From: Candidatus Moraniibacteriota bacterium
GTDB lineage: Bacteria; Patescibacteriota; Minisyncoccia; Moranbacterales; GCA-2747515
DNA: 64,000 nt
Direction: 5' to 3'
NCBI GenBank assembly: GCA_942490825.1
Contig: CALNYG010000005.1
Span: 134,240-198,239 of the forward strand
Shown: one piece after another, positions 2,819 through 46,424 of the stretch
How the letters are laid out: every line of letters begins with the position of its first letter
How positions within the stretch are numbered: position 1 is the first letter of the stretch
Made by a program: the position numbers and the translations under genes
The notes under the pieces: model-generated
What the model saw: the letters and a program-made list of their open reading frames with translations, nothing else
The model's database searches: none
Told to the model about the DNA's origin: nothing

Positions 2819-4930
2819 ATGGGAATCCATAAAATCAAAAAACGCAACGGAGAGATAGTAGATTTTGACATATCAAAGATAGAAAGTGCCATAGAAAAGG
2901 CCTTTTCAGCAACAGGAATTCAGGATGATTCAAGTAAAATTTGCGAGAAAATCTATGTAGAATTAGATGAAAATTATACAGAAGAAGTACCTACAGTTGA
3001 AGAAATACAGGATGCCGTCGAAACTATTTTAATCAAAGAAGAATATTCAGATACTGCCAAAGCATATATCCTCTATCGTCAAAAAAGAATCGAACAGCGA
3101 GCTGATCAAAATGTCATGGTAGACGTTGAAAAAACCATGGGGGAATACCTCAAACAGTTAGATTGGCGAGTTAATGCCAATTCAAATATTGGGTACTCTT
3201 TGGGAGGGATGATTTTAAACACTTCGGGAAAAGTTACTGCGAACTATTGGTTATCACATGTTTATCCAAAAGCTATTGGAGAAGCTCATCGAAATGCTGA
3301 CATTTATATTCACGATTTGGATTTTTTCTCAGGATATTGTGCCGGCTGGAGTTTGCGAGTTTTATTAGAAGAGGGATTTAACGGGGTTCCTAGTAAAGTC
3401 GAATCAGATCCGCCGAAACATCTTTCGAGCGCAGTTTCTCAAATGATTAATTTTTTAGGAACTTTACAGAACGAGTGGGCAGGAGCACAGGCTTTTTCTA
3501 GCTTTGACACATATTTAGCCCCTTTTGTCAAGAAGCGAGAAATGGAATTGCGAAAAGAAATCGAAGAATCTGAAATGAGTTTTCCTTCAGATGATAAAAA
3601 AGAAGCGTATATTGAAAAATCAATTGAAAAATACGTTTTTCAAAATGTTCAGTCTTTCGTATTTAATTTAAATATTCCATCTCGATGGGGAACACAGACA
3701 CCTTTTACTAATATTACATTAGACTGGCTGTGTCCAGATGATATGAAAGAGAAGACTTTGCTATTAGGAGGAAAGCCGTTCGAATATAAATATGGTGAAT
3801 TGCAGAATGAGATGAATGTTATTAATAGAGCTTTTCTTAAAGTGATGATGAAAGGAGATGCAAAAGGGCGAACCTTTACCTTTCCAATTCCGACCTACAA
3901 TATTACCAAAGATTTCAATTGGGAAGATCCAAAAGTTTTACCACTTTTCGAAATGACAGCTAAATACGGGACTCCTTATTTCCAAAATTTCATTAATTCT
4001 GACTTAGATCCGAAGGACGTGCGGTCAATGTGTTGTCGTTTACAGTTAGATTTGAAAGAATTACGTAAAAGAGGTGGTGGATTATTCGGTTCAGCGGAGA
4101 TGACAGGTTCAATCGGTGTAGTTACGTTAAATATCGCAAGAATTGGTTACAATTTTAAAGGTGATAAAGAAGGATTATTAAATAGGATTAAAGAATTAAT
4201 GGAACTAGCGAAGACTTCTTTAGAAATTAAACGAAAAGTTATTCAAAAATGGACAGATTTAGGTTTGTTTCCCTACACAAAGCGTTATTTAGGCAAATTA
4301 GATAGTCATTTCTCAACAATTGGTGTGAATGGAATTAATGAAGCAATTCGTAATTTTACGGATGATAAGGAAAACATTGTTACAGAATATGGTCAAAAGT
4401 TTGCTGAAGAAGTTTTAGAATTTGTTCGAGAAGGGCTTTCCGAATTTCAAGAGGAGACTGGTAATCTTTATAATCTTGAGGCAACGCCAGGCGAAGGTGC
4501 AAATTATCGTTTTGCCAGGGAAGATCAAAAGAAATTTGAAGAAATTATTCAGGCTGGAACTGAAGATGCTCCTTATTATACTAATTCTACTCAAATTCCA
4601 GTGGGATATACTGATGATGTATTTGAAGCACTTGATTTACAGGATAAATTACAAACAATGTACACAGGAGGAACTGTTTTTCATGCGTATATGAGTGAGA
4701 AACTAAGTTCAGGTGAAGCGTGTCGAGATTTAGTGAAAAAGATTTTAACTAATTATCATTTGCCTTATTTGACAATTACTCCGACATTTTCTGTTTGTCC
4801 AAAGCATGGTTATTTAGCAGGAGAGCATGAGTTTTGTCCAAAATGTGATGATGAATTAGGTATTGTGGATGGTGATAAAGTTGATCCGGAGATGGTGAAG
4901 AAACATAGGAGTGAGGAAGCACATCGTTAA
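2819..4930 (+). CDS. nrdD: Anaerobic ribonucleoside-triphosphate reductase (class III RNR) large part; lacks the glycyl-radical C-terminus
   Basis: 703-aa ORF. It has an N-terminal ATP-cone (IKKRNGEIVDFDISKIESAIEKAF) and the C-terminal zinc motif CPKHGY...CPKC. It then ends in a non-conserved 25-aa tail without an RVxGY-type glycyl-radical motif. Confidence 0.9.
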   Translation: MGIHKIKKRNGEIVDFDISKIESAIEKAFSATGIQDDSSKICEKIYVELDENYTEEVPTVEEIQDAVETILIKEEYSDTAKAYILYRQKRIEQRADQNVMVDVEKTMGEYLKQLDWRVNANSNIGYSLGGMILNTSGKVTANYWLSHVYPKAIGEAHRNADIYIHDLDFFSGYCAGWSLRVLLEEGFNGVPSKVESDPPKHLSSAVSQMINFLGTLQNEWAGAQAFSSFDTYLAPFVKKREMELRKEIEESEMSFPSDDKKEAYIEKSIEKYVFQNVQSFVFNLNIPSRWGTQTPFTNITLDWLCPDDMKEKTLLLGGKPFEYKYGELQNEMNVINRAFLKVMMKGDAKGRTFTFPIPTYNITKDFNWEDPKVLPLFEMTAKYGTPYFQNFINSDLDPKDVRSMCCRLQLDLKELRKRGGGLFGSAEMTGSIGVVTLNIARIGYNFKGDKEGLLNRIKELMELAKTSLEIKRKVIQKWTDLGLFPYTKRYLGKLDSHFSTIGVNGINEAIRNFTDDKENIVTEYGQKFAEEVLEFVREGLSEFQEETGNLYNLEATPGEGANYRFAREDQKKFEEIIQAGTEDAPYYTNSTQIPVGYTDDVFEALDLQDKLQTMYTGGTVFHAYMSEKLSSGEACRDLVKKILTNYHLPYLTITPTFSVCPKHGYLAGEHEFCPKCDDELGIVDGDKVDPEMVKKHRSEEAHR

Positions 4931-4939
4931 ACTGTAGAT

Positions 4940-5077
4940 ATGTCATTCTGAACGAAGTAATTTTGTTGTTAAACAAAATTACGCAGTGAAGAATCCCAAT
5001 AAGTTTTTCTGATATTGAAAGTGTTGCGGTGCACCGTTCGGAATTCTTCATTTCGCTCCGCTACATTCAAAATGACA
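4940..5077. mobile_element. MITE-like repeat (ATGTCATTCTGAA variant) inside the nrdD interruption
   Basis: The ends ATGTCATTCTGAACG ... CATTCAAAATGACA are inverted. The internal units GAAGAATCC/GGAATTCTTC are also inverted. It belongs to the family seen at 7394, 8061, 19905, 27154, 33045 and 46298. Confidence 0.55.
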
Positions 5078-5160
5078 AAAAATTTATAATTTAAAAATTT
5101 TCAATCCTGACGTAATTATCAAATTTATAAATAAAAAATAATTAATTAATATAGAAATAT

Positions 5161-5328
5161 ATGCAAAATGCAAAACGTACTCGTTGCGAGGTTTGGACTC
5201 GGACAATGGGATATTATCGACCGACTTCTTTTTATAACTTAGGGAAGAAATCTGAGCATTATTCTCGAAAGCATTTTCAGGAATGTGTTTGTGCTAATAA
5301 GGACTTTACTGAAAAGTATTCTGATTAA
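5161..5328 (+). CDS. nrdD: Stand-alone glycyl-radical segment of NrdD (55 aa)
   Basis: My translation is MQNAKRTRCEVWTRTMGYYRPTSFYNLGKKSEHYSRKHF... The stretch CEVWTRTMGYYRP..NLGKK.E...R matches the class III RNR C-terminal glycyl-radical loop. A strong terminator follows. This ORF is absent from the supplied track because it is under 60 aa. Confidence 0.75.
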   Translation: MQNAKRTRCEVWTRTMGYYRPTSFYNLGKKSEHYSRKHFQECVCANKDFTEKYSD

Positions 5329-5395: not shown

Positions 5396-5953
5396 ATGTA
5401 TAATAGACCACGCATGAGTAGAAAAACAATAGAAGCTTACTATTTGGAGAATGAACAAAAAATCCAAAGAGAGATCTTTCAAGAGAGCAATGTAGATCTT
5501 TTAAATATTGATAGCTATTATAAAAAATATTCTTTAAATCCTATCGTAATTGACAAAAATAAAGAAAAGAAAAATAACGGTGAGTCTAAAAGAATCAAAA
5601 TAGAAGTTCCAATCATTGAAAATAATAAAATAGATAAAATTTCTAAATTAGAATCATTAAGATTTCCGGATATTTCTCTAGAAAAAGAATTTTCATTCTT
5701 TGATAATAAAATAACTTTTTATTTAAATATTTCGGATGGTGATAATAATATAGATCCTGAAGAAATAAAAAAGAATAAAAAAAGCAAAGAGAGTGATTTG
5801 AAAGAGCTTATTTCTTGTAAAAATACTGATATTGAAAAAGGAAATAAAGAAATCAAAAAAATTATTGAAGATTCAATAGAAAAAAGAATTATTGAATTAG
5901 AAGAAGATAAAAAACATTTAGCTTCTGTGCTTAAAGAAATAAATGAAGATTAA
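5396..5953 (+). CDS. Hypothetical Lys/Glu/Asn-rich protein
   Basis: 185-aa ORF of low-complexity charged sequence. No recognisable motif. Confidence 0.5.
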   Translation: MYNRPRMSRKTIEAYYLENEQKIQREIFQESNVDLLNIDSYYKKYSLNPIVIDKNKEKKNNGESKRIKIEVPIIENNKIDKISKLESLRFPDISLEKEFSFFDNKITFYLNISDGDNNIDPEEIKKNKKSKESDLKELISCKNTDIEKGNKEIKKIIEDSIEKRIIELEEDKKHLASVLKEINED

Positions 5954-5981
5954 AGAGATTTTTAATTAAAGAGAATAAATC

Positions 5982-6015
5982 AAAAAACCACTCGCCAATA
6001 CCAAGTGGTTTTTTG
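5982..6015. terminator. Bidirectional intrinsic terminator between convergent genes
   Basis: AAAAAACCACT-11 nt loop-AGTGGTTTTTT, with A/T runs on both sides. Confidence 0.75.
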
Positions 6016-6022
6016 TTTATTT

Positions 6023-7228
6023 TTACAATCCACTAACAAATCTCCCCTGAGTCTCACTCAAAATACCATTAATAGCATCCAAATCCTTACAACCATACTT
6101 CATACTCGCAGAATAAAACCTCTTTTTCGGTCCATGACAACCACCATTATCCTTATGCAACGGCGTCAAAACAGGCATCAAAAAACCAACATCTTGCGAA
6201 ACAAACTTATCATGAAGATCCTTTAACGTCTCATGCCTTTTCTCCTCACTCATTCGAGAAAACTTACTCATATCATCACCAATCACGCCACTCCAATCCA
6301 AGTGAACAAAAACATTCTTAGCTTTAGATTTATATCTCTCATGCCATAACAAAGCCCAACACCAACCACCATTTTCAGCACTCCACCAACGTGAAAAACA
6401 CTGTTGATCTTCAACGCTACCATCAGTATGCAAGCCAATTCCACCTTCAATAAAATCAAATATTTTTAAATAATCCTTATCCTCAATATCATTAGTCTGA
6501 GCACCAATCACAATTTTAACACCACGTTTTTTAGCATAATCCCGCATATTTTTCACCACTTCTCGAGTACGTTTTGGATCATCAATATCTTCTTCCTGAT
6601 AAAAAACCTGACCAAACATAAAAACCTGAATACCATTTTCAATAGCATCTTCAGTTATTTGCTGAACATAATTACGATATTCTTCTTCACTAAAACTAGG
6701 TTTACAAGTGTGCTCGCCCCAATAATTTTTGCTATTTTCTCGACACATTTCACCAAAATCAAATTCACGATCCTCTTTTTTAAAATAATAATTCTCTTTT
6801 TTATTAATAGCTTCAGCAATAAACATCCCGTACAAAATATCTTTTTTATCTATTTGCGCTTGTATTTCTTGAACTTCACTAAAATCAGGCGCATCCAACC
6901 AAGTTTCCAGAGCTCGATGTAGGTAATAACACTCACTATCATTAATAACTTTTATATCCTTACTGCTTTTATTGTAGCCGCTAAGCAATCCGTCGGCAAC
7001 ACAACCTTGCGTTTTCATTTTCTTTATATCTGGATCAGCAAAGTTAAGTGGGATATCTTTTTTATCTATAGGTTCAGTTATGACCACAGGCTCTACTTTA
7101 GGAGGTACAGCAAAAGTTGGCACTTCTTCTTTGAAATTAGTCGATTTAGGTATAACAAACCAGACAGTCATTAGAAAAAGGACTGGTAATATAATTAATA
7201 TTCTTTTTTTGATTTTAAATAATTTCAT
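6023..7228 (-). CDS. Hypothetical membrane-anchored exported protein
   Basis: 401-aa ORF with an N-terminal TM/signal segment (ILIILPVLFLMTVWFVIP) and several Cys and Trp-rich motifs. No family recognised. Confidence 0.65.
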   Translation of the reverse strand: MKLFKIKKRILIILPVLFLMTVWFVIPKSTNFKEEVPTFAVPPKVEPVVITEPIDKKDIPLNFADPDIKKMKTQGCVADGLLSGYNKSSKDIKVINDSECYYLHRALETWLDAPDFSEVQEIQAQIDKKDILYGMFIAEAINKKENYYFKKEDREFDFGEMCRENSKNYWGEHTCKPSFSEEEYRNYVQQITEDAIENGIQVFMFGQVFYQEEDIDDPKRTREVVKNMRDYAKKRGVKIVIGAQTNDIEDKDYLKIFDFIEGGIGLHTDGSVEDQQCFSRWWSAENGGWCWALLWHERYKSKAKNVFVHLDWSGVIGDDMSKFSRMSEEKRHETLKDLHDKFVSQDVGFLMPVLTPLHKDNGGCHGPKKRFYSASMKYGCKDLDAINGILSETQGRFVSGL

Positions 7229-7345: not shown

Positions 7346-7393
7346 TTTAGGCTTAAGATTTTAAACCCCTATAAAATTATGTAAGTCCACAAA

Positions 7394-7528
7394 CATGTCA
7401 TTCCGGAAAATATATTTTCTTTTGTAGAAACGTCGATTTATCGCGTTTTATAGATAGAAAATAATTTATCCGGAATCTATACTATAAGTTTAAAGAAAAT
7501 TTTAAAGTATAATTTTTCAGGATGACAT
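7394..7528. mobile_element. MITE-like element (ATGTCATTCCGGAA ... TTCAGGATGACAT)
   Basis: Terminal inverted repeats. The first ~90 nt match the copy at 8061 with a single mismatch. Confidence 0.6.
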
Positions 7529-7607
7529 AGGAAAAAATTCATGACTTAATAAATCTAAAATATTAGTGTATAATGTTAAAAAGAAGGTTTAATTTTAGTG
7601 TATTTCT

Positions 7608-8033
7608 ATGAAAAAAATTATTACTAATTCAGCTAAAGAGACACAACAGTTAGCATTTGATTATACCTTGAAAATAGCAAAAGGTCAAGTGGTTTGCTTT
7701 CAAGGTGATTTAGGTGCAGGGAAGACTACTTTTATTCAGGGGATGTTAAATTTTCTAAACGCGGAAAAGCCATATACTAGTCCAACTTTTGTGATTATGA
7801 AGAAATATCGAGTTAATCATGATATAATAAAGAACGTGTATCATATTGATGCTTATCGAATAGATGATAATTCCTTATTTGATTTGGGTTGGGATGAAAT
7901 TGTGCGAGATCCAGAATCTCTAGTTTTATTGGAATGGCCAGAAAAGATTGAAAAGTCTATTCCGAAAGATGCTCAATTAATTAAATTTAAGTGGATTGAT
8001 GAAAATTCGAGGGAGATTGATTTTAGTAAATAA
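7608..8033 (+). CDS. tsaE: tRNA t6A37 threonylcarbamoyl-transfer protein TsaE
   Basis: 141 aa with GDLGAGKTTFIQG (P-loop), SPTF and HIDAYR motifs typical of TsaE/YjeE. Confidence 0.85.
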   Translation: MKKIITNSAKETQQLAFDYTLKIAKGQVVCFQGDLGAGKTTFIQGMLNFLNAEKPYTSPTFVIMKKYRVNHDIIKNVYHIDAYRIDDNSLFDLGWDEIVRDPESLVLLEWPEKIEKSIPKDAQLIKFKWIDENSREIDFSK

Positions 8034-8060
8034 AAGTTGAGTTATTTTTGAATCTCCAAA

Positions 8061-8266
8061 CATGTCATTCCGGAAAATATATTTTCTTTTGTAGAAACGT
8101 CGATTTATCGCGTTTTATAGATAGAAAATAATTTATCCAGAATCTATATTTTAGGTTTTTTTAAGTCTTAAAGCATAGATTCCGGATAGACTAATTTGTA
8201 TTCAACCTGTCTGTCGGCAGACAGGTCGCTACGCTCTTGAACAAATTATGTCTTCCGGAATGACAT
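8061..8266. mobile_element. MITE-like element, longer copy with a nested GC hairpin
   Basis: CATGTCATTCCGGAA ... TTCCGGAATGACAT. It contains CCTGTCTGTCGGCAGACAGG. It has the same orientation as the 7394 copy, so tsaE is bracketed by direct copies. Confidence 0.6.
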
Positions 8267-19904: not shown

Positions 19905-20075
19905 ATGTCATACCGGAAGACAGAATTTATTCAAGAGTGTAGCGATTGATTTAAATTCATCTATCCGGTATCTATACTGCAAGTTTAAAGAAAACTTAAA
20001 GTTTAAGATTCCGGATAAATTATTTTCTAATTTTTTGCTACGCTCAAAAAGAAAATATATTTTCCGGAATGACAC
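19905..20075. mobile_element. MITE-like element between the two O-antigen-ligase-like genes
   Basis: ATGTCATACCGGAA ... TTTTCCGGAATGACAC. The internal AAGTTTAAAG/CTTAAAGTTTAAG core matches other copies. Confidence 0.55.
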
Positions 20076-21935: not shown

Positions 21936-22725
21936 TTACTTAAAAATCCCCCGAAAAAATCTCAAGACCCAACCTTGCCATTTCCTAAAATGCTTAGCAA
22001 AAAAATAATCCTGCGATTTATAATACTCAACCTTTTGCAATTTCTCTTCCGACCAACTCTTACCACCCCAATGGAAAACCTCACTCAAAGGAAAATAAAA
22101 AATTTCAGCTCCAACACTTTTTAACCGCAAACACAAATCCTGATCCTCAAAATACATAAAAAAATTATCATCAAAACCATTCAAATCATTAAATAATTTT
22201 TTCTCAACAATCATTGCACAACCACTAGCCCAATCAACCTGCGTAACATTATTATTTATCCAAGGTTTTTTTTGTAAATTTATTTCTAGAGATAATATTA
22301 AACAAAGAAGTTTTATAACCACATGACCAATCCTGAACTTCACTATTTTTAATATCTAAAACCTTTAAACCTAAAATTTTATTTTTATTTTCCTCACTTT
22401 TTAAAAAATCAATAATCTCAATAAATGAATTATTTCTAAATTCAGTGTCTGGATTAAGAAAAAACAAATATTTTCCTTTAGATATCTTTGATCCCTTATT
22501 ATTAGCATCGCCAAATCCTAGATTTGCATCATTTTCTAAAATTTTTAATTCAAATTTAAAGTCATTTTTTAAATCTAACTTGTTCTTATCATTATTAACC
22601 ACAAGCACTTCAAAGTCATCTTGTAAAACAGGTGTTATAAACCGATCAACACTTTTTAAGCATTGATTTAAAAAGTTTAAACTCTTATAATTAACTATAA
22701 TAATAGAAATAAATTTTTGAGACAT
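21936..22725 (-). pseudogene. Family-2 glycosyltransferase split by a frameshift in an A8 tract
   Basis: The N-terminal ORF (22252-22725) has IIIVNYKS...NPDTEF. The C-terminal ORF (21936-22343) has VDWASGCAMIV...FMYFEDQDLCLR. The two frames join if the A8 run (plus-strand T8 at 22266-22273) were A7. Confidence 0.75.
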
Positions 22726-22734
22726 TCTTTTAAG

Positions 22735-22892
22735 ATGTCACTCTGAACAGAATAATTTTTATTTCATAAAAATATGCAACGAATAATCCTAATAAATTTT
22801 TCGATAACTTATTGTTTTCTTTGAGAAATTCCTATCTATTGTACAACAAGCGAATTTCTTTTTACAAAAATTTTATTACACTCAGAATAACG
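22735..22892. mobile_element. Degenerate MITE-like element (ATGTCACTCTGAAC ... CACTCAGAATAACG)
   Basis: The ends resemble the family TIRs with mismatches. Confidence 0.35.
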
Positions 22893-27153: not shown

Positions 27154-27334
27154 CATGTCATTCCGGAAATTTTTTAGGTTTTTTGTAAAAAAATTTAAAA
27201 ATTATCCGGAATCTAGGAAACTTTAAGATTAATGATAAAGTTTAAGTTAAATATCAAATATAATAAAAACGTTATGGAACTAGTTGTAAAACTGGTTCCT
27301 GCAATAGTTTATCTCAAATTTTTCAGGATGACAT
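27154..27334. mobile_element. MITE-like element
   Basis: CATGTCATTCCGGAA ... TTTCAGGATGACAT. It contains the GGAACTAGTT-gtaa-AACTGGTTCC hairpin. Confidence 0.55.
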
Positions 27335-27395
27335 GAATTAAAGTTTTGTGATTTTCTGTAGGAGATTCCTGTCTACTGACAGATACAAAAATTAC

Positions 27396-27540
27396 AGAGT
27401 TAGTTCAATCGTCCTCGATTGAACTGTTTTTTATTTCAAACTTTAAATTTTATAAAAATAATAAAAAGTTAAAGTAAGCTTTAAATCTTTTGAGTAGAGT
27501 ATGAAAATAAAGGTTCAATCTACAAGATTGAACCAACTCT
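27396..27540 (+). repeat. 145-bp twin-hairpin element, copy A
   Basis: AGAGTTAGTTCAATCG-tcct-CGATTGAAC ... about 95 nt AT-rich ... GGTTCAATCT-aca-AGATTGAACCAACTCT. Near-identical to the copy at 29913. Confidence 0.8.
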
Positions 27541-27545
27541 TTTAA

Positions 27546-27562
27546 AAGCTCGTGCGGCGAGC
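27546..27562 (+). repeat. 19-mer variant AAGCTCGTGCGGCGAGC
   Basis: One mismatch to the consensus. Followed by the GC hairpin CCTGCCTATGTCGGCAGACAG. Confidence 0.7.
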
Positions 27563-29775: not shown

Positions 29776-29832
29776 GGAATTCTTCACTTCTTTATTTTTT
29801 CTAACGAAAAAATAAATCCGTTCAGAATGACA
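29776..29832. repeat. Half-unit of the MITE family (GGAATTCTTCAC ... CGTTCAGAATGACA)
   Basis: It matches the right half of the element at 4940-5077. Confidence 0.45.
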
Positions 29833-29888
29833 GGAAATTTTAATGACAGAAAATTTGTAGGGGTTTGCCAGTGGCAAACCTAAAAATT

Positions 29889-29903
29889 CCGTGCGGCGAG
29901 TAC
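29889..29903 (+). repeat. Truncated 19-mer copy CCGTGCGGCGAGTAC
   Basis: Read directly. It abuts twin-hairpin copy B. Confidence 0.6.
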
Positions 29904-29912
29904 AAGAATTAT

Positions 29913-30057
29913 AGAGTTGGTTCAATCGTCCTCGATTGAACTGTTTTTTTATTTTAAACTTTAAATTTCATAAAATAATAAAAAATTAAAGTAAACTTTA
30001 AATCTATTGAATATGGTATAAACAGAAAGGTTCAATCTACAAGATTGAACCAACTCT
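29913..30057 (+). repeat. 145-bp twin-hairpin element, copy B
   Basis: Perfect 15-nt terminal inverted repeat AGAGTTGGTTCAATC / GATTGAACCAACTCT. Each end is part of a GGTTCAATC/GATTGAACC hairpin. Confidence 0.8.
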
Positions 30058-30062
30058 TTTAC

Positions 30063-30081
30063 AAGCCCGTGCGGCGAGCAC
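30063..30081 (+). repeat. 19-mer AAGCCCGTGCGGCGAGCAC
   Basis: Exact copy. Confidence 0.8.
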
Positions 30082-31106: not shown

Positions 31107-31879
31107 GGTATTGCTACCAAACTATAGATAATGTAAAATGAATAGGTAATTAAATACCTAAAAACAAAAAAATGAAAATTAAATGCCCTCATTGCAATAA
31201 TAAGAATTATGTTAAAAATGGTAAAGTAAATAAAAAACAAAGATATCTATGTAAAGAATGTAGCTATAACTTTTCTAGATTTACAAAAAGAGGAAAACCT
31301 AAAGAAATTAAGAAAAAAGCAATTGAAATGTATTTAGAGGGACTAGGATTTAGATCAATAGGAAGAATACTGAAAGTTAGTAACGTTAGTATATTAAGAT
31401 GGGTAAAAAAAGCAACTAAAAAATTAAGGAATATTTTAAAAAGTAAAAAAGAAGTAAAATATTGGAAAATAGAAAAAATGGAATTAGATGAAATGTGGCA
31501 TTTTGTGTTAAAAAAAAGAAAAAAGCCTGGATTTGGCTTGCAGTTGATAGATCTAGTAAAATAATAATTGATTTCGTGATAGGGACAAGAGGTGAAAAAA
31601 CTGGAAGAAAATTATGGGACAAAATCAAAAAAATTGATTGCGATAAATACTGTTCAGATCATTGGGATGTTTATAAAAAATTTTTACCAAAAGATAAGCA
31701 CATTCAAACAAAAGCAGAGACTTTTACAGTTGAAGGAATGAATAATCAATTAAGACATTATATAGCAAGATTTCATAGGAAAACTCATTGTTATTCTAAA
31801 AGTATTGAAATGGTTGAATATACAATCTTGCTATTCATGCACAGAGAAATTGCTATTTCTATATTTGAGTAGCAATACC
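31107..31879 (+). mobile_element. IS1-family insertion sequence (773 bp) with 8-bp target-site duplication AAAAAATT
   Basis: IRL is GGTATTGCTACC (compare E. coli IS1 GGTGATGCTGCC). IRR is GGTAGCAATACC in reverse. The flanking direct repeats lie at 31099-31106 and 31880-31887. Confidence 0.85.
31172..31872 (+). CDS. IS1 transposase InsAB' (InsA zinc-finger/HTH plus InsB catalytic part; programmed -1 frameshift)
   Basis: InsA frame: CPHCNNKNYVKNGK..YLCKEC. The -1 frame reads AWIWLAVDRSSKII...GTRG. The slippery run TTAAAAAAAAG lies at about 31508-31518. The frame offset between the two ORFs is -1. Confidence 0.85.
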
Positions 31880-33044: not shown

Positions 33045-33227
33045 ATGTCATGTCATCCTGAAAAATTATTTCATTTTTTGTAAAAAAATTAAAAAATTTA
33101 TTCAGGATCTCAGAAGAATATTATACTTTAAATTTTTTTCTTAAACTTAAAGTGTAGATTCCGGATAAATTATTTTCTATTTCATCGCTACACTCTGAAA
33201 GAAAATATATTTTCCGGAATGACATGT
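33045..33227. mobile_element. MITE-like element
   Basis: ATGTCATGTCATCCTGAA ... TTTTCCGGAATGACATG. Its right half closely matches the right half of the 19905 copy. Confidence 0.55.
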
Positions 33228-33431: not shown

Positions 33432-35222
33432 ATGTCAGAAGAAAAAGATTTAGAAGAAGAAAAAGAAGTAAAAAATGTAAAAATACCAGCGACAGTAACC
33501 ATTAAGGATTTTTCGTCAATTTTAGATTTACCAGTTACAGAAGTAATCACTGAGCTGATGAAAAATCAGATTATGGCAACAATCAATGAAGAAATTGATT
33601 TCGATACAGCAGCTTTAATCGCTGGAGAGTTAGGTTTCGAAGTAGAAGAGGATTTAGAAATTGCTGATAATGAAACAATAACTTTAGAGAGATTATTAGA
33701 AATTTGCGAAAAAGAAAAATTGTCAGATAAAAAGTTTGCTTCTCGACCGCCAATCGTTACAATCCTTGGACATGTTGATCATGGAAAGACAACTTTATTA
33801 GATACAATTCGACAAACTTCTGTAGCAGGCGATGAAGCCGGAGGAATTACTCAGCATATTCGAGCCTATCAGGTTAAAAAGAAAGGAAAGACTTTGACTT
33901 TCATTGATACTCCAGGACATGCAGCTTTTGCAGCTATGCGTGAGCGGGGCGTTTCTTTGGCAGATATTGCGATCCTAGTTGTAGCGGCAGATGATGGCGT
34001 ACGACCTCAAACTGAAGAGGTAATAAAGTATTTAAAAGATAAGAACATTCCAACTTTGGTAGCAATCAATAAAGTTGACAAACCAAATGCTAATGTTAAT
34101 CGAGTAAAACAAGAATTAGCCGAACACGATATCATGATTGAGGAATACGGTGGAAAGGTAATATGTAATGAAATTAGTGCTAAAAATAAAATTGGAATTA
34201 ATGAATTATTGGAAAGCGTTTTGCTTTTAGCTGAAGTTGAGGACTTGCGTTCTGATGAAAAAAGAGATGGGTTAGCAGTTGTTCTTGAATCTCACAAAGA
34301 TCCACAAAAAGGACCAGTAGCAACAGTAGTAGTTAAAACTGGAACAATTAAAGTTGGGCAAGATGTTACAGTTGGCAAGACTTATGGGAGAATTAGACGA
34401 ATTGAAGATTATAATGGAAAAAGTATTGATAAAGCTGGACCATCAATGCCTGTAATTGTTTTTGGTCTTTCTGATACAGTTGAAACAAATAGTGTTATTC
34501 AGGTAGCTAATGCAAAAAGATCAGCTAGACTTAAATCGGAAGAAATGGCGAGTCGTTTAGCAGGAGGCAAAAAGAATGTAAAAAGTATTAACAGCGGAGC
34601 TGATGTACAGTTGAATGTTATTATAAAAGCAGATGTACAAGGATCTATTGAAGCTATTGATCAGGTTTTAGGAACTATTCCTCAAGGAAAGGTTTCGATT
34701 AATTATGTTGATGTTGGAGTGGGAAATATTACTGAATCAGACGTACAGATGGCAGAATCTTCTAAAGCAATACTTTTTGGATTCAACGTTAGTACTAGTC
34801 CTGTGGCTAAAAGAATGGCGGAAAATAAAGGAGTTGAAATCGATGAGTATTCTGTTATTTATAAATTAGTTGAGAATATCAATGAAAGATTAGTTACCTT
34901 ACTTCCTGAAGAGATTGAGAAAACTGATTTGGGCAAGTTAGAAATTTTAGGTATTTTCAGAACAGAGAAAGATAATATGATTATTGGTGGACGAGTGATC
35001 GAAGGTAAAATTTTGAATAAAGGTGTTAAACTTAATATTTTCAGAGAGGAAAAGAATATTGGTAAAGCAAATCTTGTGAACTTACAAAGTAATAAAGTTG
35101 ATGTGAATGAGGTGAAGAAAAATGATGAATGTGGGATTACCATTGATAAAAGCTTCAAACTTAAGATCGGAGATGTTGCGGAAATTTATCAAGAACTTGT
35201 TAAGCCTAGAACTTTGGAGTAG
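33432..35222 (+). CDS. infB: Translation initiation factor IF-2
   Basis: 596 aa with the G-domain motifs ILGHVDHGKTTLLD, DTPGH, NKVD. Confidence 0.95.
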   Translation: MSEEKDLEEEKEVKNVKIPATVTIKDFSSILDLPVTEVITELMKNQIMATINEEIDFDTAALIAGELGFEVEEDLEIADNETITLERLLEICEKEKLSDKKFASRPPIVTILGHVDHGKTTLLDTIRQTSVAGDEAGGITQHIRAYQVKKKGKTLTFIDTPGHAAFAAMRERGVSLADIAILVVAADDGVRPQTEEVIKYLKDKNIPTLVAINKVDKPNANVNRVKQELAEHDIMIEEYGGKVICNEISAKNKIGINELLESVLLLAEVEDLRSDEKRDGLAVVLESHKDPQKGPVATVVVKTGTIKVGQDVTVGKTYGRIRRIEDYNGKSIDKAGPSMPVIVFGLSDTVETNSVIQVANAKRSARLKSEEMASRLAGGKKNVKSINSGADVQLNVIIKADVQGSIEAIDQVLGTIPQGKVSINYVDVGVGNITESDVQMAESSKAILFGFNVSTSPVAKRMAENKGVEIDEYSVIYKLVENINERLVTLLPEEIEKTDLGKLEILGIFRTEKDNMIIGGRVIEGKILNKGVKLNIFREEKNIGKANLVNLQSNKVDVNEVKKNDECGITIDKSFKLKIGDVAEIYQELVKPRTLE

Positions 35223-39011: not shown

Positions 39012-39177
39012 TAGTTAGTTCAATTGTCCTCGATTGAACTATTTTTTTATACCAAATTTTAAGTTTAGATAATTTTAAAAGTTTACACAACAATCTTTTA
39101 GTTAAAATAAACACCAGGTTCAATCTACAAGATTGAACCAACTGCAAGATTAAACCAACTATAAGATTAAACCAACA
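39012..39177 (+). repeat. Twin-hairpin element, copy C, with a triplicated right end
   Basis: GTTCAATTG-tcct-CGATTGAAC ... GGTTCAATCT-aca-AGATTGAACCAAC, then two further 17-nt units (TGCAAGATTAAACCAAC, TATAAGATTAAACCAAC). Confidence 0.7.
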
Positions 39178-46297: not shown

Positions 46298-46424
46298 ATG
46301 TCATTTCGACTGTAGCGAAGTGGAATGGAGAAATCTCAAAACTCTAAGTTGAAACTAAAGTTTTGAGATCTCTCCACTCCATATTTTTAAACTTCATTTA
46401 AAAATATTCCGGTCGAGATGACAT
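46298..46424. mobile_element. MITE-like element (ATGTCATTTCGAC ... GTCGAGATGACAT variant)
   Basis: Has TIRs plus a long internal inverted repeat (TGGAATGGAGAAATCTCAAAACT / AGTTTTGAGATCTCTCCACTCCA). Confidence 0.55.

Follow-up and report, generated by a model that had tools for sequence, protein, structure and literature searches.

The 64-kb stretch of DNA analyzed here (the window, always meaning the whole stretch) carries a family of small dispersed repeats, which an earlier note had described as resembling MITEs (miniature inverted-repeat transposable elements), with two near-identical copies on either side of the gene tsaE. These elements are probably hairpin units of the Ssn-type, or CGTC-tagged repetitive extragenic palindrome (REP), class, arranged in head-to-head pairs. 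The window contains eight inverted pairs and one single hairpin unit, and all nine lie between open reading frames (ORFs). The units carry the motif of this class, their hairpins are conserved, their distribution is wide, they are associated with ssnA genes in relatives of the host, and they are present in some relatives and absent from others. Repeats of this kind have been described before (2013, 2025); what is added here is the host lineage, a covarying loop extension of 36–66 nt, and the empty sites in relatives.

Two published descriptions define the class. CGTC-tagged REPs are units of 20–40 bp with an unpaired tag CGTC, often TGTC (also CCTC), a stem of 8–9 bp that begins with A, T, a loop of 4–5 nt, and a tail of approximately CCA (Di Nocera, De Gregorio and Rocco, 2013, BMC Genomics 14:522, PMC3733652). 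They form mostly head-to-head dimers with spacers of 20–100 bp, lie between co-directional or convergent genes, and are without a transposase of their own (Di Nocera et al., 2013). Reported in five phyla, mostly in Alphaproteobacteria, the class counts Neisseria dRS3 and Rickettsia RPE-4 and RPE-6 among its members (Di Nocera et al., 2013). The Neisseria repeat was later redefined as NTS, CGTCATTCCCGCGMAVGCGGGAATCYRG, and generalized to Ssn-related motifs (SRMs) (Chenal et al., 2025, Nat Commun 16:2388, PMC11893778). SsnA, a single-domain GIY-YIG protein of 94 aa, binds NTS solely as single-stranded DNA (ssDNA), with activity confined to one strand and none on double-stranded DNA or RNA, and its cut falls a few nucleotides upstream. 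The C behind the palindrome is the most crucial base for binding, the three bases preceding it are needed for cleavage and matter most to it, and specificity resides in the sequence of the stem as well as in its shape. The ssnA genes are usually flanked by the motif, and in Neisseria the system reduces the integration of incoming repeat-bearing DNA (Chenal et al., 2025).

The window has a G+C content of ∼29%, and its small genes are densely packed; they include dnaA, dnaN, a split nrdD, tsaE, and type-IV-secretion-like genes (Pfam). It is best read as a portion of a Patescibacteria (candidate phyla radiation, CPR) genome because the closest homologs of its NrdD come from metagenome-assembled genomes (MAGs) of Candidatus Moranbacteria/Moraniibacteriota. 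Members of Moraniibacteriota have small genomes that are commonly regarded as repeat-poor, and no description of such repeats in this lineage was found in the literature searched.

Anatomy and census of the hairpin units

Read from 5′ to 3′, a half-unit starts with the unpaired tag (A)TGTC; next come a stem, an inner hairpin that is variable (36–66 nt), the returning stem, and a C, and a short CTA or CCA tail closes it (C-YA). The stem opens with the pairs A-T and T-A, and its commonest form is ATTCCGGA. All well-formed units in the window begin with (A/G/C/T)TGTC, and the stem follows directly. An element is made of two inverted half-units with their tags pointing outward and a spacer between them, 127–206 nt in all; in the five pairs whose two units are both full, the spacer measures ∼25–60 nt. 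The “terminal repeats” of the elements are complete REP-like hairpin units in themselves. The arms had been described as hairpin-forming units of ∼80 nt, and hairpin units they are, but their length ranges from 40 to 90 nt and is not uniform. The common flank CTCC..AAAC is part of the unit and is found on whichever side the tag is. A core said to be common to the copies is a spacer of the AAGTTTAAAG or CTTTAAAC type, which is seen in only five of the nine.

The nine copies or fragments with inverted termini are real. By sequence reading, the described termini are present at all nine listed places, and ATGTCATTCCGGAA has seven matches in the window at ≤2 mismatches versus 0.48 expected. A covariance model that had been trained on units of other genomes and was then run on the window recovered eight full half-units at E ≤ 7e-6, in a strand-specific manner, with no hit within the window's genes. 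The copies at 4940, 22735, 29776, and 46298 have the common tag and layout, but their stems differ (ATTCTGAA, ATTTCGAC, ATCTCGAC), and the model finds them weakly or not at all (E 0.5–1 or no hit). These other-stem subtypes retain the AT...AT-C frame, which at 5078 and 29832 has an additional T ahead of its C. A home-made generic scanner for tagged hairpins, which is noisy in AT-rich DNA (15 hits versus 7.9 expected), was superseded by the covariance model. A literature search with the sequence strings of the repeats gave no match. The hammerhead, k-turn, integron attC, and Xer/dif motifs were considered and dropped, as the order and spacing of the conserved bases are unsuitable. The copies are as follows (strand in parentheses; a dot marks elements without a single strand).

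4940–5078 (.): head-to-head pair of another subtype, with stems ATTCTGAAC/GTGAAGAAT and ATTTTGAAT/ATGAAGAAT, from sequence and folding; it lies between the two pieces of the split nrdD.
4940–4997 (+): weak model hit within this pair, E 0.53.
7390–7481 (+): full half-unit upstream of tsaE, 58.5 bits, E 1.3e-10 (hit 7395–7479); the order is CAAAC, ATGTC, ATTCCGGA, a 60-nt inner hairpin, TCCGGAAT, CTATA.
7482–7528 (−): spacer (AAGTTTAAAG...) and truncated inverted partner ending in ...TTCAGGATGACAT, from sequence.
8057–8148 (+): full half-unit on the downstream side of tsaE that repeats 7390–7481 in direct orientation; 49.4 bits, E 1.3e-8 (hit 8062–8146).
8176–8266 (−): partner half-unit, inverted and of another subtype, whose inner hairpin is GC-rich and has the apex GCGTAGC; 52.8 bits, E 2.3e-9.
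19905–20075 (.): head-to-head pair between two minus-strand O-antigen-ligase-like genes, with model hits at 19905–19974 (+, E 2.1e-8) and 20005–20075 (−, E 8e-11).
22735–22892 (.): degenerate pair (ATGTCACTCTGAAC ... CTCAGAATAACG), recognized by tag and architecture only; no model hit.
27154–27334 (.): full left half-unit and truncated right end (...TTCAGGATGACAT) with an unrelated inner hairpin; model hit at 27155–27215 (+), 59.7 bits, E 7.3e-11.
29776–29834 (−): single half-unit (CTGTC, ATTCTGAAC ... GTGAAGAAT), 81% complementary to 4941–4997.
33045–33227 (.): head-to-head pair upstream of ORF 33432–35222, with left stem ATCCTGAA/TTCAGGAT and right stem ATTCCGGA; model hits at 33050–33111 (+, E 6.6e-6) and 33155–33225 (−, 67.7 bits, E 1.3e-12).
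46298–46424 (.): pair of a further subtype (ATTTCGAC / ATCTCGAC), located between convergent genes and folding into a single long hairpin; weak model hit, E 1.

The units account for contig breaks and for spurious small ORFs. Logan contig L001, which is 99.98% identical to the window over 5 kb, terminates within the repeat at 46298–46424. Next to the degenerate pair at 22735, a family-2 glycosyltransferase gene (21936–22725) seems to be interrupted and reads as two overlapping ORFs of 157 and 135 aa, a possible frameshift or pseudogene.

Two further repeats accompany the elements. The 17-mer GCCCGTGCGGCGAGCAC has nine copies at ≤3 mismatches versus 0 expected (7327, 19870, 27548, 29887, 30065, 33275, 38931, 46486, and 63219) and forms a weak hairpin only. 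Five of these copies lie 18–62 nt outside the tagged end of a hairpin pair, in a constant relative orientation, and the same arrangement is found in a Moraniibacteriota MAG locus (L010, see below). The second family, of ∼180 nt, occurs at 27384–27562, 29901–30079, and 39013–39143, the first two copies being 86% identical; its ends, AGAGTTGGTTCAATC...GATTGAACCAACTCT, are inverted, hairpins lie inside it, and it is often next to the 17-mer.

Hairpin conservation and ssnA genes beyond this genome

One genome per species was scanned with the pattern ATGTCATTCCGGAA-N(40-70)-TCCGGAATC, a frame of 23 nt. The frame was found in 53 loci versus ∼0.5 estimated by chance. These loci belong to Patescibacteria (Moraniibacteriota and others), Alphaproteobacteria (among them a Rickettsiales chromosome), Gammaproteobacteria, Bdellovibrionales, Thermoanaerobaculia, and Ignavibacteriaceae; the last include two complete chromosomes with several hits each. 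In the window, stems of this type coexist with others. About half of the frame hits have an inverted partner 60–230 nt away, so the pair architecture is common to other phyla, and many units in these loci occur singly. The interiors of the units are unrelated in sequence across loci and nearly all form hairpins (mean z −2.8). In an alignment of 46 units, the tag is invariant and the extension helix shows 149 double-sided changes versus 54.8 ± 6.4 in shuffles; the signal is register-specific and is abolished when the columns are slid by one. A bulged purine separates the conserved helix from the variable one. Six loci (L009, L020, L025, L034, L040, and L053) contain nested or tandem units, in which a second (T)GTCATTCCGG tag begins in the loop region of the first unit; this suggests insertion of unit into unit, or slippage.

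A covarying helix is also what selection on RNA structure would leave, if the transcribed hairpins stabilized, terminated, or processed mRNAs. Of the nine copies, six have co-directional neighbor genes, two have convergent ones, and one has divergent ones; they are mostly downstream of or between co-directional genes, some only 10–44 nt past a stop codon. The tag strand shows a slight excess of G-U pairs (66/961 versus 43/923), and REPs elsewhere in bacteria have reported effects at the RNA level (Di Nocera et al., 2013). We nevertheless consider an RNA-level role improbable as the main explanation. The elements have no match in Rfam, at the gathering threshold or at E ≤ 5, and a promoter and terminator scan found nothing specific within them, neither terminator-like sites nor a T-run after an element. 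The pairs are symmetric, with both strands alike, and the conserved unpaired tag and tail match a known frame of DNA–protein recognition, whose enzyme, SsnA, does not bind RNA (Chenal et al., 2025). An effect on RNA could accompany the units as a secondary consequence.

The Ssn-type assignment gains from the gene found between such units in relatives. Ssn-family proteins are single-domain GIY-YIG proteins of ∼94 aa (cd10448). The element subtypes closest to those of the window occur in L010, in which a gene for a 96-aa GIY-YIG protein (5879–6166, minus strand; MCK4635914.1) is bracketed by units with their tags outward, at 5793–5852 (+, 59.5 bits) and 6202–6262 (−, 42.5 bits) by the covariance model. 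Locus L067, from Moranbacteria, encodes a 102-aa homolog, 67% identical to the L010 protein, with short canonical units on both sides, e.g., CGTCATCCCGGTCTTGACCCGGGATCCAG. The L010 protein is also 51% identical, without gaps, to a 94-aa protein of N. gonorrhoeae that is surrounded by NTS pairs, and residues Y6, Y17, and E64 of the latter, which align with Y9, Y20, and E67 of the former, are those mutated in the study of SsnA (Chenal et al., 2025). On a 2.17-Mb N. gonorrhoeae replicon listed as a plasmid in PLSDB (L068, NZ_CP119140.1, 1881657–1883144), an unannotated 94-aa SsnA ortholog has NTS units on both sides, two of them in head-to-head pairs. Similar proteins of ∼95 aa number in the thousands; for many of them, the annotated source is Moranbacteria or Parcubacteria.

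A small GIY-YIG ORF that adjoins a unit in another locus, L039, was rejected as an ssnA gene; its product is 36% identical to the L010 protein, reads as UPF0213/YhbQ-like, and is encoded beside a tRNA gene. In that region (6760–7180), the ORF lies directly upstream of the tRNA gene, the first ∼17 nt of which are duplicated before the ORF, and it looks like a cassette inserted at the tRNA.

These observations bear on two explanations that invoke a transposase. As a classical MITE, the element would be a deletion derivative of an insertion sequence (IS), mobilized in trans by a DDE transposase that reads the ATGTCAT... inverted repeats in double-stranded DNA. Inverted ends, small size, multiple intergenic copies, and presence that varies between relatives all agree with it. 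Ends of the form TGT...ACA are moreover similar to those of several DDE families. This origin is very unlikely, however, for no target-site duplication was seen at any of the eight pairs, and each end is a whole hairpin unit in itself, has a directional tag and tail, and also occurs singly (at 29776 and at many other loci). The 94 ORFs that adjoin units in the 53 loci include no recurrent transposase family, and no ATGTCAT terminus is present at or around the IS1-like ORFs at 31172–31872. The description as MITE-like was apt for a dispersed, non-autonomous family with inverted ends but not in the sense of a transposase-type MITE. It had been noted that the window has no matching transposase, and indeed it holds no mobilizing gene; a longer, gene-bearing version with the same ends does exist, in L010, but the gene encodes a homolog of a GIY-YIG nuclease and not a transposase. 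The IS1-like region itself comprises an InsA-like ORF (Zn ribbon, helix-turn-helix) that overlaps an IS1 DDE ORF (Pfam E 3e-21) read in a different frame.

Copying of a REP pair by a RAYT (REP-associated Y1/HUH tyrosine transposase) acting on single-stranded hairpins, as in REPINs, would account for the same architecture of inverted REP pair, spacer, and long hairpin and for the same single-strand logic (Di Nocera et al., 2013). The gene flanked in L010, L067, and Neisseria is ssnA, though, and the tag is TGTC, of the CGTC class that has no transposase association in the literature (Di Nocera et al., 2013). No Y1 transposase was present among the neighbor families with at least two ORF hits, a survey that does not cover single hits beyond the top 25. 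We regard the REPIN origin as highly improbable.

Gain and loss among relatives

Comparison with relatives indicates that the repeats are not fixed in position. The locus L056, whose NrdD and TsaE are 88% and 78% identical to those of the window, keeps the order nrdD, 55-aa ORF, 403-aa gene, tsaE, peptidyl-prolyl isomerase (PPIase), and PrgI/TraC-like gene. With the covariance model, no unit was found over its whole 13.6 kb and thus none beside tsaE, where the gaps are 190 and 75 nt long versus 380 and 268 nt in the window. The gap at nrdD has no unit in L055 (84%), L056, L058 (94%), or L059 (92%), and the model found no unit in L057. The right unit of the 33045 pair differs from its counterpart in another MAG, L046, by one base in 71. 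Together, the relatives without copies and the one-base difference argue for recent gain or loss and not for fixed structural repeats. The earlier note had held that copies conserved in position, with no empty sites, would point to structural or regulatory repeats. Empty sites exist in L055, L056, L058, and L059, and the reading of the family as mobile, or as gained and lost, survives. Exact-protein look-ups with TsaE, the cyclophilin-type PPIase, the 401-aa neighbor, and P0001 returned no strain-level contigs; a metagenome scan with the 401-aa neighbor turned up seven loci, which lack synteny with tsaE and were unhelpful for empty-site junctions.

The copy at 4940 lies in the gap of the split nrdD, between a 703-aa ORF (2819–4930; Pfam NRDD 2–531) and a 55-aa ORF (5161–5328; NRDD 532–562, its C-terminal end), which holds the stretch MGYYRP, read as the glycyl-radical motif. 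Most NrdD homologs from Moranbacteria are ∼705 aa long, and in L055, L056, and L059 a separate 55-aa ORF follows 71–154 nt downstream; two relatives have a contiguous NrdD (P0007, 768 aa; P0008, 740 aa). Since relatives without the element are split too, the split is older than the repeat in its gap, and the element was rejected as an intron or as the cause of the split. Further upstream of nrdD, at 968–1395, there are four copies of a near-perfect palindrome, TTGTTCCACGTGGAACAA, downstream of gene 162–932 (its homolog in L059 hits Pfam TrmB); they look like operator sites.

The copies that flank tsaE (7608–8033; Pfam TsaE E 3.8e-33) had drawn attention as near-identical direct copies. Indeed, 7390–7481 and 8057–8148 are in direct orientation, 667 nt apart, and have a single mismatch in 92 nt, after which they diverge. 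The identity extends to the left half-unit alone and not to the whole element, the right halves being of different subtypes. Folded as ssDNA, 8061–8266 and 7394–7528 do far better than shuffles (z −9.3 and −4.2, respectively). Excision or duplication of tsaE, the consequence that had been suggested, is possible in principle through direct repeats of this length and similarity, but there is no evidence for it here. The sole syntenic relative, L056, merely lacks the repeats; with nine elements over a few dozen intergenic gaps, two in neighboring gaps are unremarkable; and the effect of a repeat-gene-repeat layout in Neisseria is that incoming DNA replaces the gene less, not that excision is favored (Chenal et al., 2025). 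That the two copies serve chiefly as a recombination substrate is hardly probable.

Proposed mechanism and comparison with known systems

Under the Ssn-type reading, each unit would fold into a hairpin when the DNA becomes single-stranded, in replication, in repair, or as incoming DNA. The base of the hairpin (AT + TCCGGA), the unpaired GTC ahead of it, and the C behind it would form the recognition frame of a small single-domain Ssn GIY-YIG nuclease, which would bind the hairpin and nick the same strand a few bases upstream, just outside the element. Since a pair is made of two inverted units, one cleavable site would fall on each strand, at an outer edge. An extension helix of 36–66 nt in place of the loop of 0–5 nt should leave the frame intact; NTS is still cut when the two hairpin halves are on separate oligonucleotides (Chenal et al., 2025), so the loop appears dispensable and its expansion compatible with cleavage. 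The pairs are probably gene-less relatives of the SRM-ssnA-SRM unit, gained and lost over time. By extension, an Ssn enzyme of this genome may act on the enlarged units and drive their spread, and, by analogy with Neisseria, the units may restrict or shape the recombination of incoming ssDNA.

Several observations weigh against this reading. A tblastn search (E ≤ 1) found no GIY-YIG gene in the window. The published SRM string, HGTCWYN(0-2)YYVSBRHN(0-5)WNVSBRGN(0-2)RNCYNB, has zero true matches in the window, owing to the loop limit and one stem position, and it does not match the short units of L067 either. The window loop of 36–66 nt, with its covarying helix and bulged purine, differs from the published 0–5 nt, and most window units measure 57–91 nt versus 20–50 nt for SRMs. 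The identity of the 23-nt frame across phyla is in part imposed by the search pattern. Recognition of ATTCCGGA-type stems by an Ssn enzyme is putative, since SsnA reads the sequence of the stem too, and the biological role has been demonstrated in Neisseria alone. Flanks in the comparisons with L055–L059 are too diverged to give a clean empty-site junction, and those of the eight pairs show no target-site duplication. Spread driven by Ssn has no demonstrated mechanism, for GIY-YIG nucleases cut DNA and are not known to join it again.

In its strongest form, the proposal would have SRM-ssnA-SRM be a mobile element, still living, whose mechanism puts it in a new class, in which a GIY-YIG nick beside the hairpin ends is followed by copying through host repair or replication, and the gene-less pairs would be miniature derivatives still spreading in Patescibacteria. 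We consider this speculative and rather unlikely; it is allowed by the empty sites, the 92-nt copies with one mismatch, and the unit that differs at one base in 71 between MAGs. If true, the enlarged covarying loop helix would be an adaptation, for instance to stability in ssDNA, and not neutral growth.

The Ssn-type reading also has wider consequences. Some Patescibacteria are naturally transformable, and if the organisms studied here take up DNA, repeats around genes could influence the choice of incoming DNA for recombination. How the repeats spread can be approached through the empty sites in relatives. Persistence of the 23-nt frame across distant phyla, while the loop reaches ∼70 nt, suggests that the enzyme reads the base of the stem and its flanks; this bears on the design of ssDNA tools, for which Ssn/hairpin pairs have been put forward (Chenal et al., 2025).

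Among known systems, two resemble the elements in part. REPIN/RAYT (Bertels and Rainey, 2011; Nunvar, 2010) has an inverted REP pair as its unit, one small repeat-flanked gene, and recognition of a single-stranded hairpin, but its tag is GTAG instead of TGTC and its enzyme a Y1/HUH transposase instead of a GIY-YIG nuclease. Bacterial MITEs, such as the Correia elements and RPE-type palindromic elements, are likewise small, non-coding, and multi-copy, with inverted ends, and vary among relatives; the window elements differ in that neither a target-site duplication nor a DDE partner was found and in that their ends are autonomous hairpins, which also occur singly.

The likeness to CGTC-REPs is closer. 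The units fit the TGTC tag, the 8-bp stem (ATTCCGGA), and the CTA/CCA tail, and they share the head-to-head pairs with often structured spacers, the presence of several stem subtypes per genome, and the co-directional or convergent placement. They differ in the sub-hairpin of 36–66 nt that replaces the loop of 4–5 nt, and the host range is extended to Moraniibacteriota, the frame being found also in Ignavibacteriaceae and others.

Closest are the SRMs and NTS, although Patescibacteria, the host type of the window, are not mentioned in the paper that describes them (Chenal et al., 2025). The window units read TGTCATTCCGGA...TCCGGAATCYA(K) and match at the 5′ end (GTCATTCC) and at the 3′ end (GGAATCY), which covers the positions critical for binding and cleavage. 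As in SRMs, an unpaired HGTC tag stands right before an AT-led palindrome (ATTCC...GGAAT), which is followed by C and a CYNB tail, here ATTCCGGA...TCCGGAAT-C-(T/C)A(T/G/C). When the loop limit of the SRM string is lifted and one position relaxed, six true window units are recovered versus 0.46 expected. Like NTS, the units are directional, multi-copy, almost always intergenic, and placed around genes, in tag-outward pairs such as those beside gonococcal ssnA. The Ssn nuclease/hairpin-repeat system described in Neisseria in 2025 would thereby now be placed in Moraniibacteriota.

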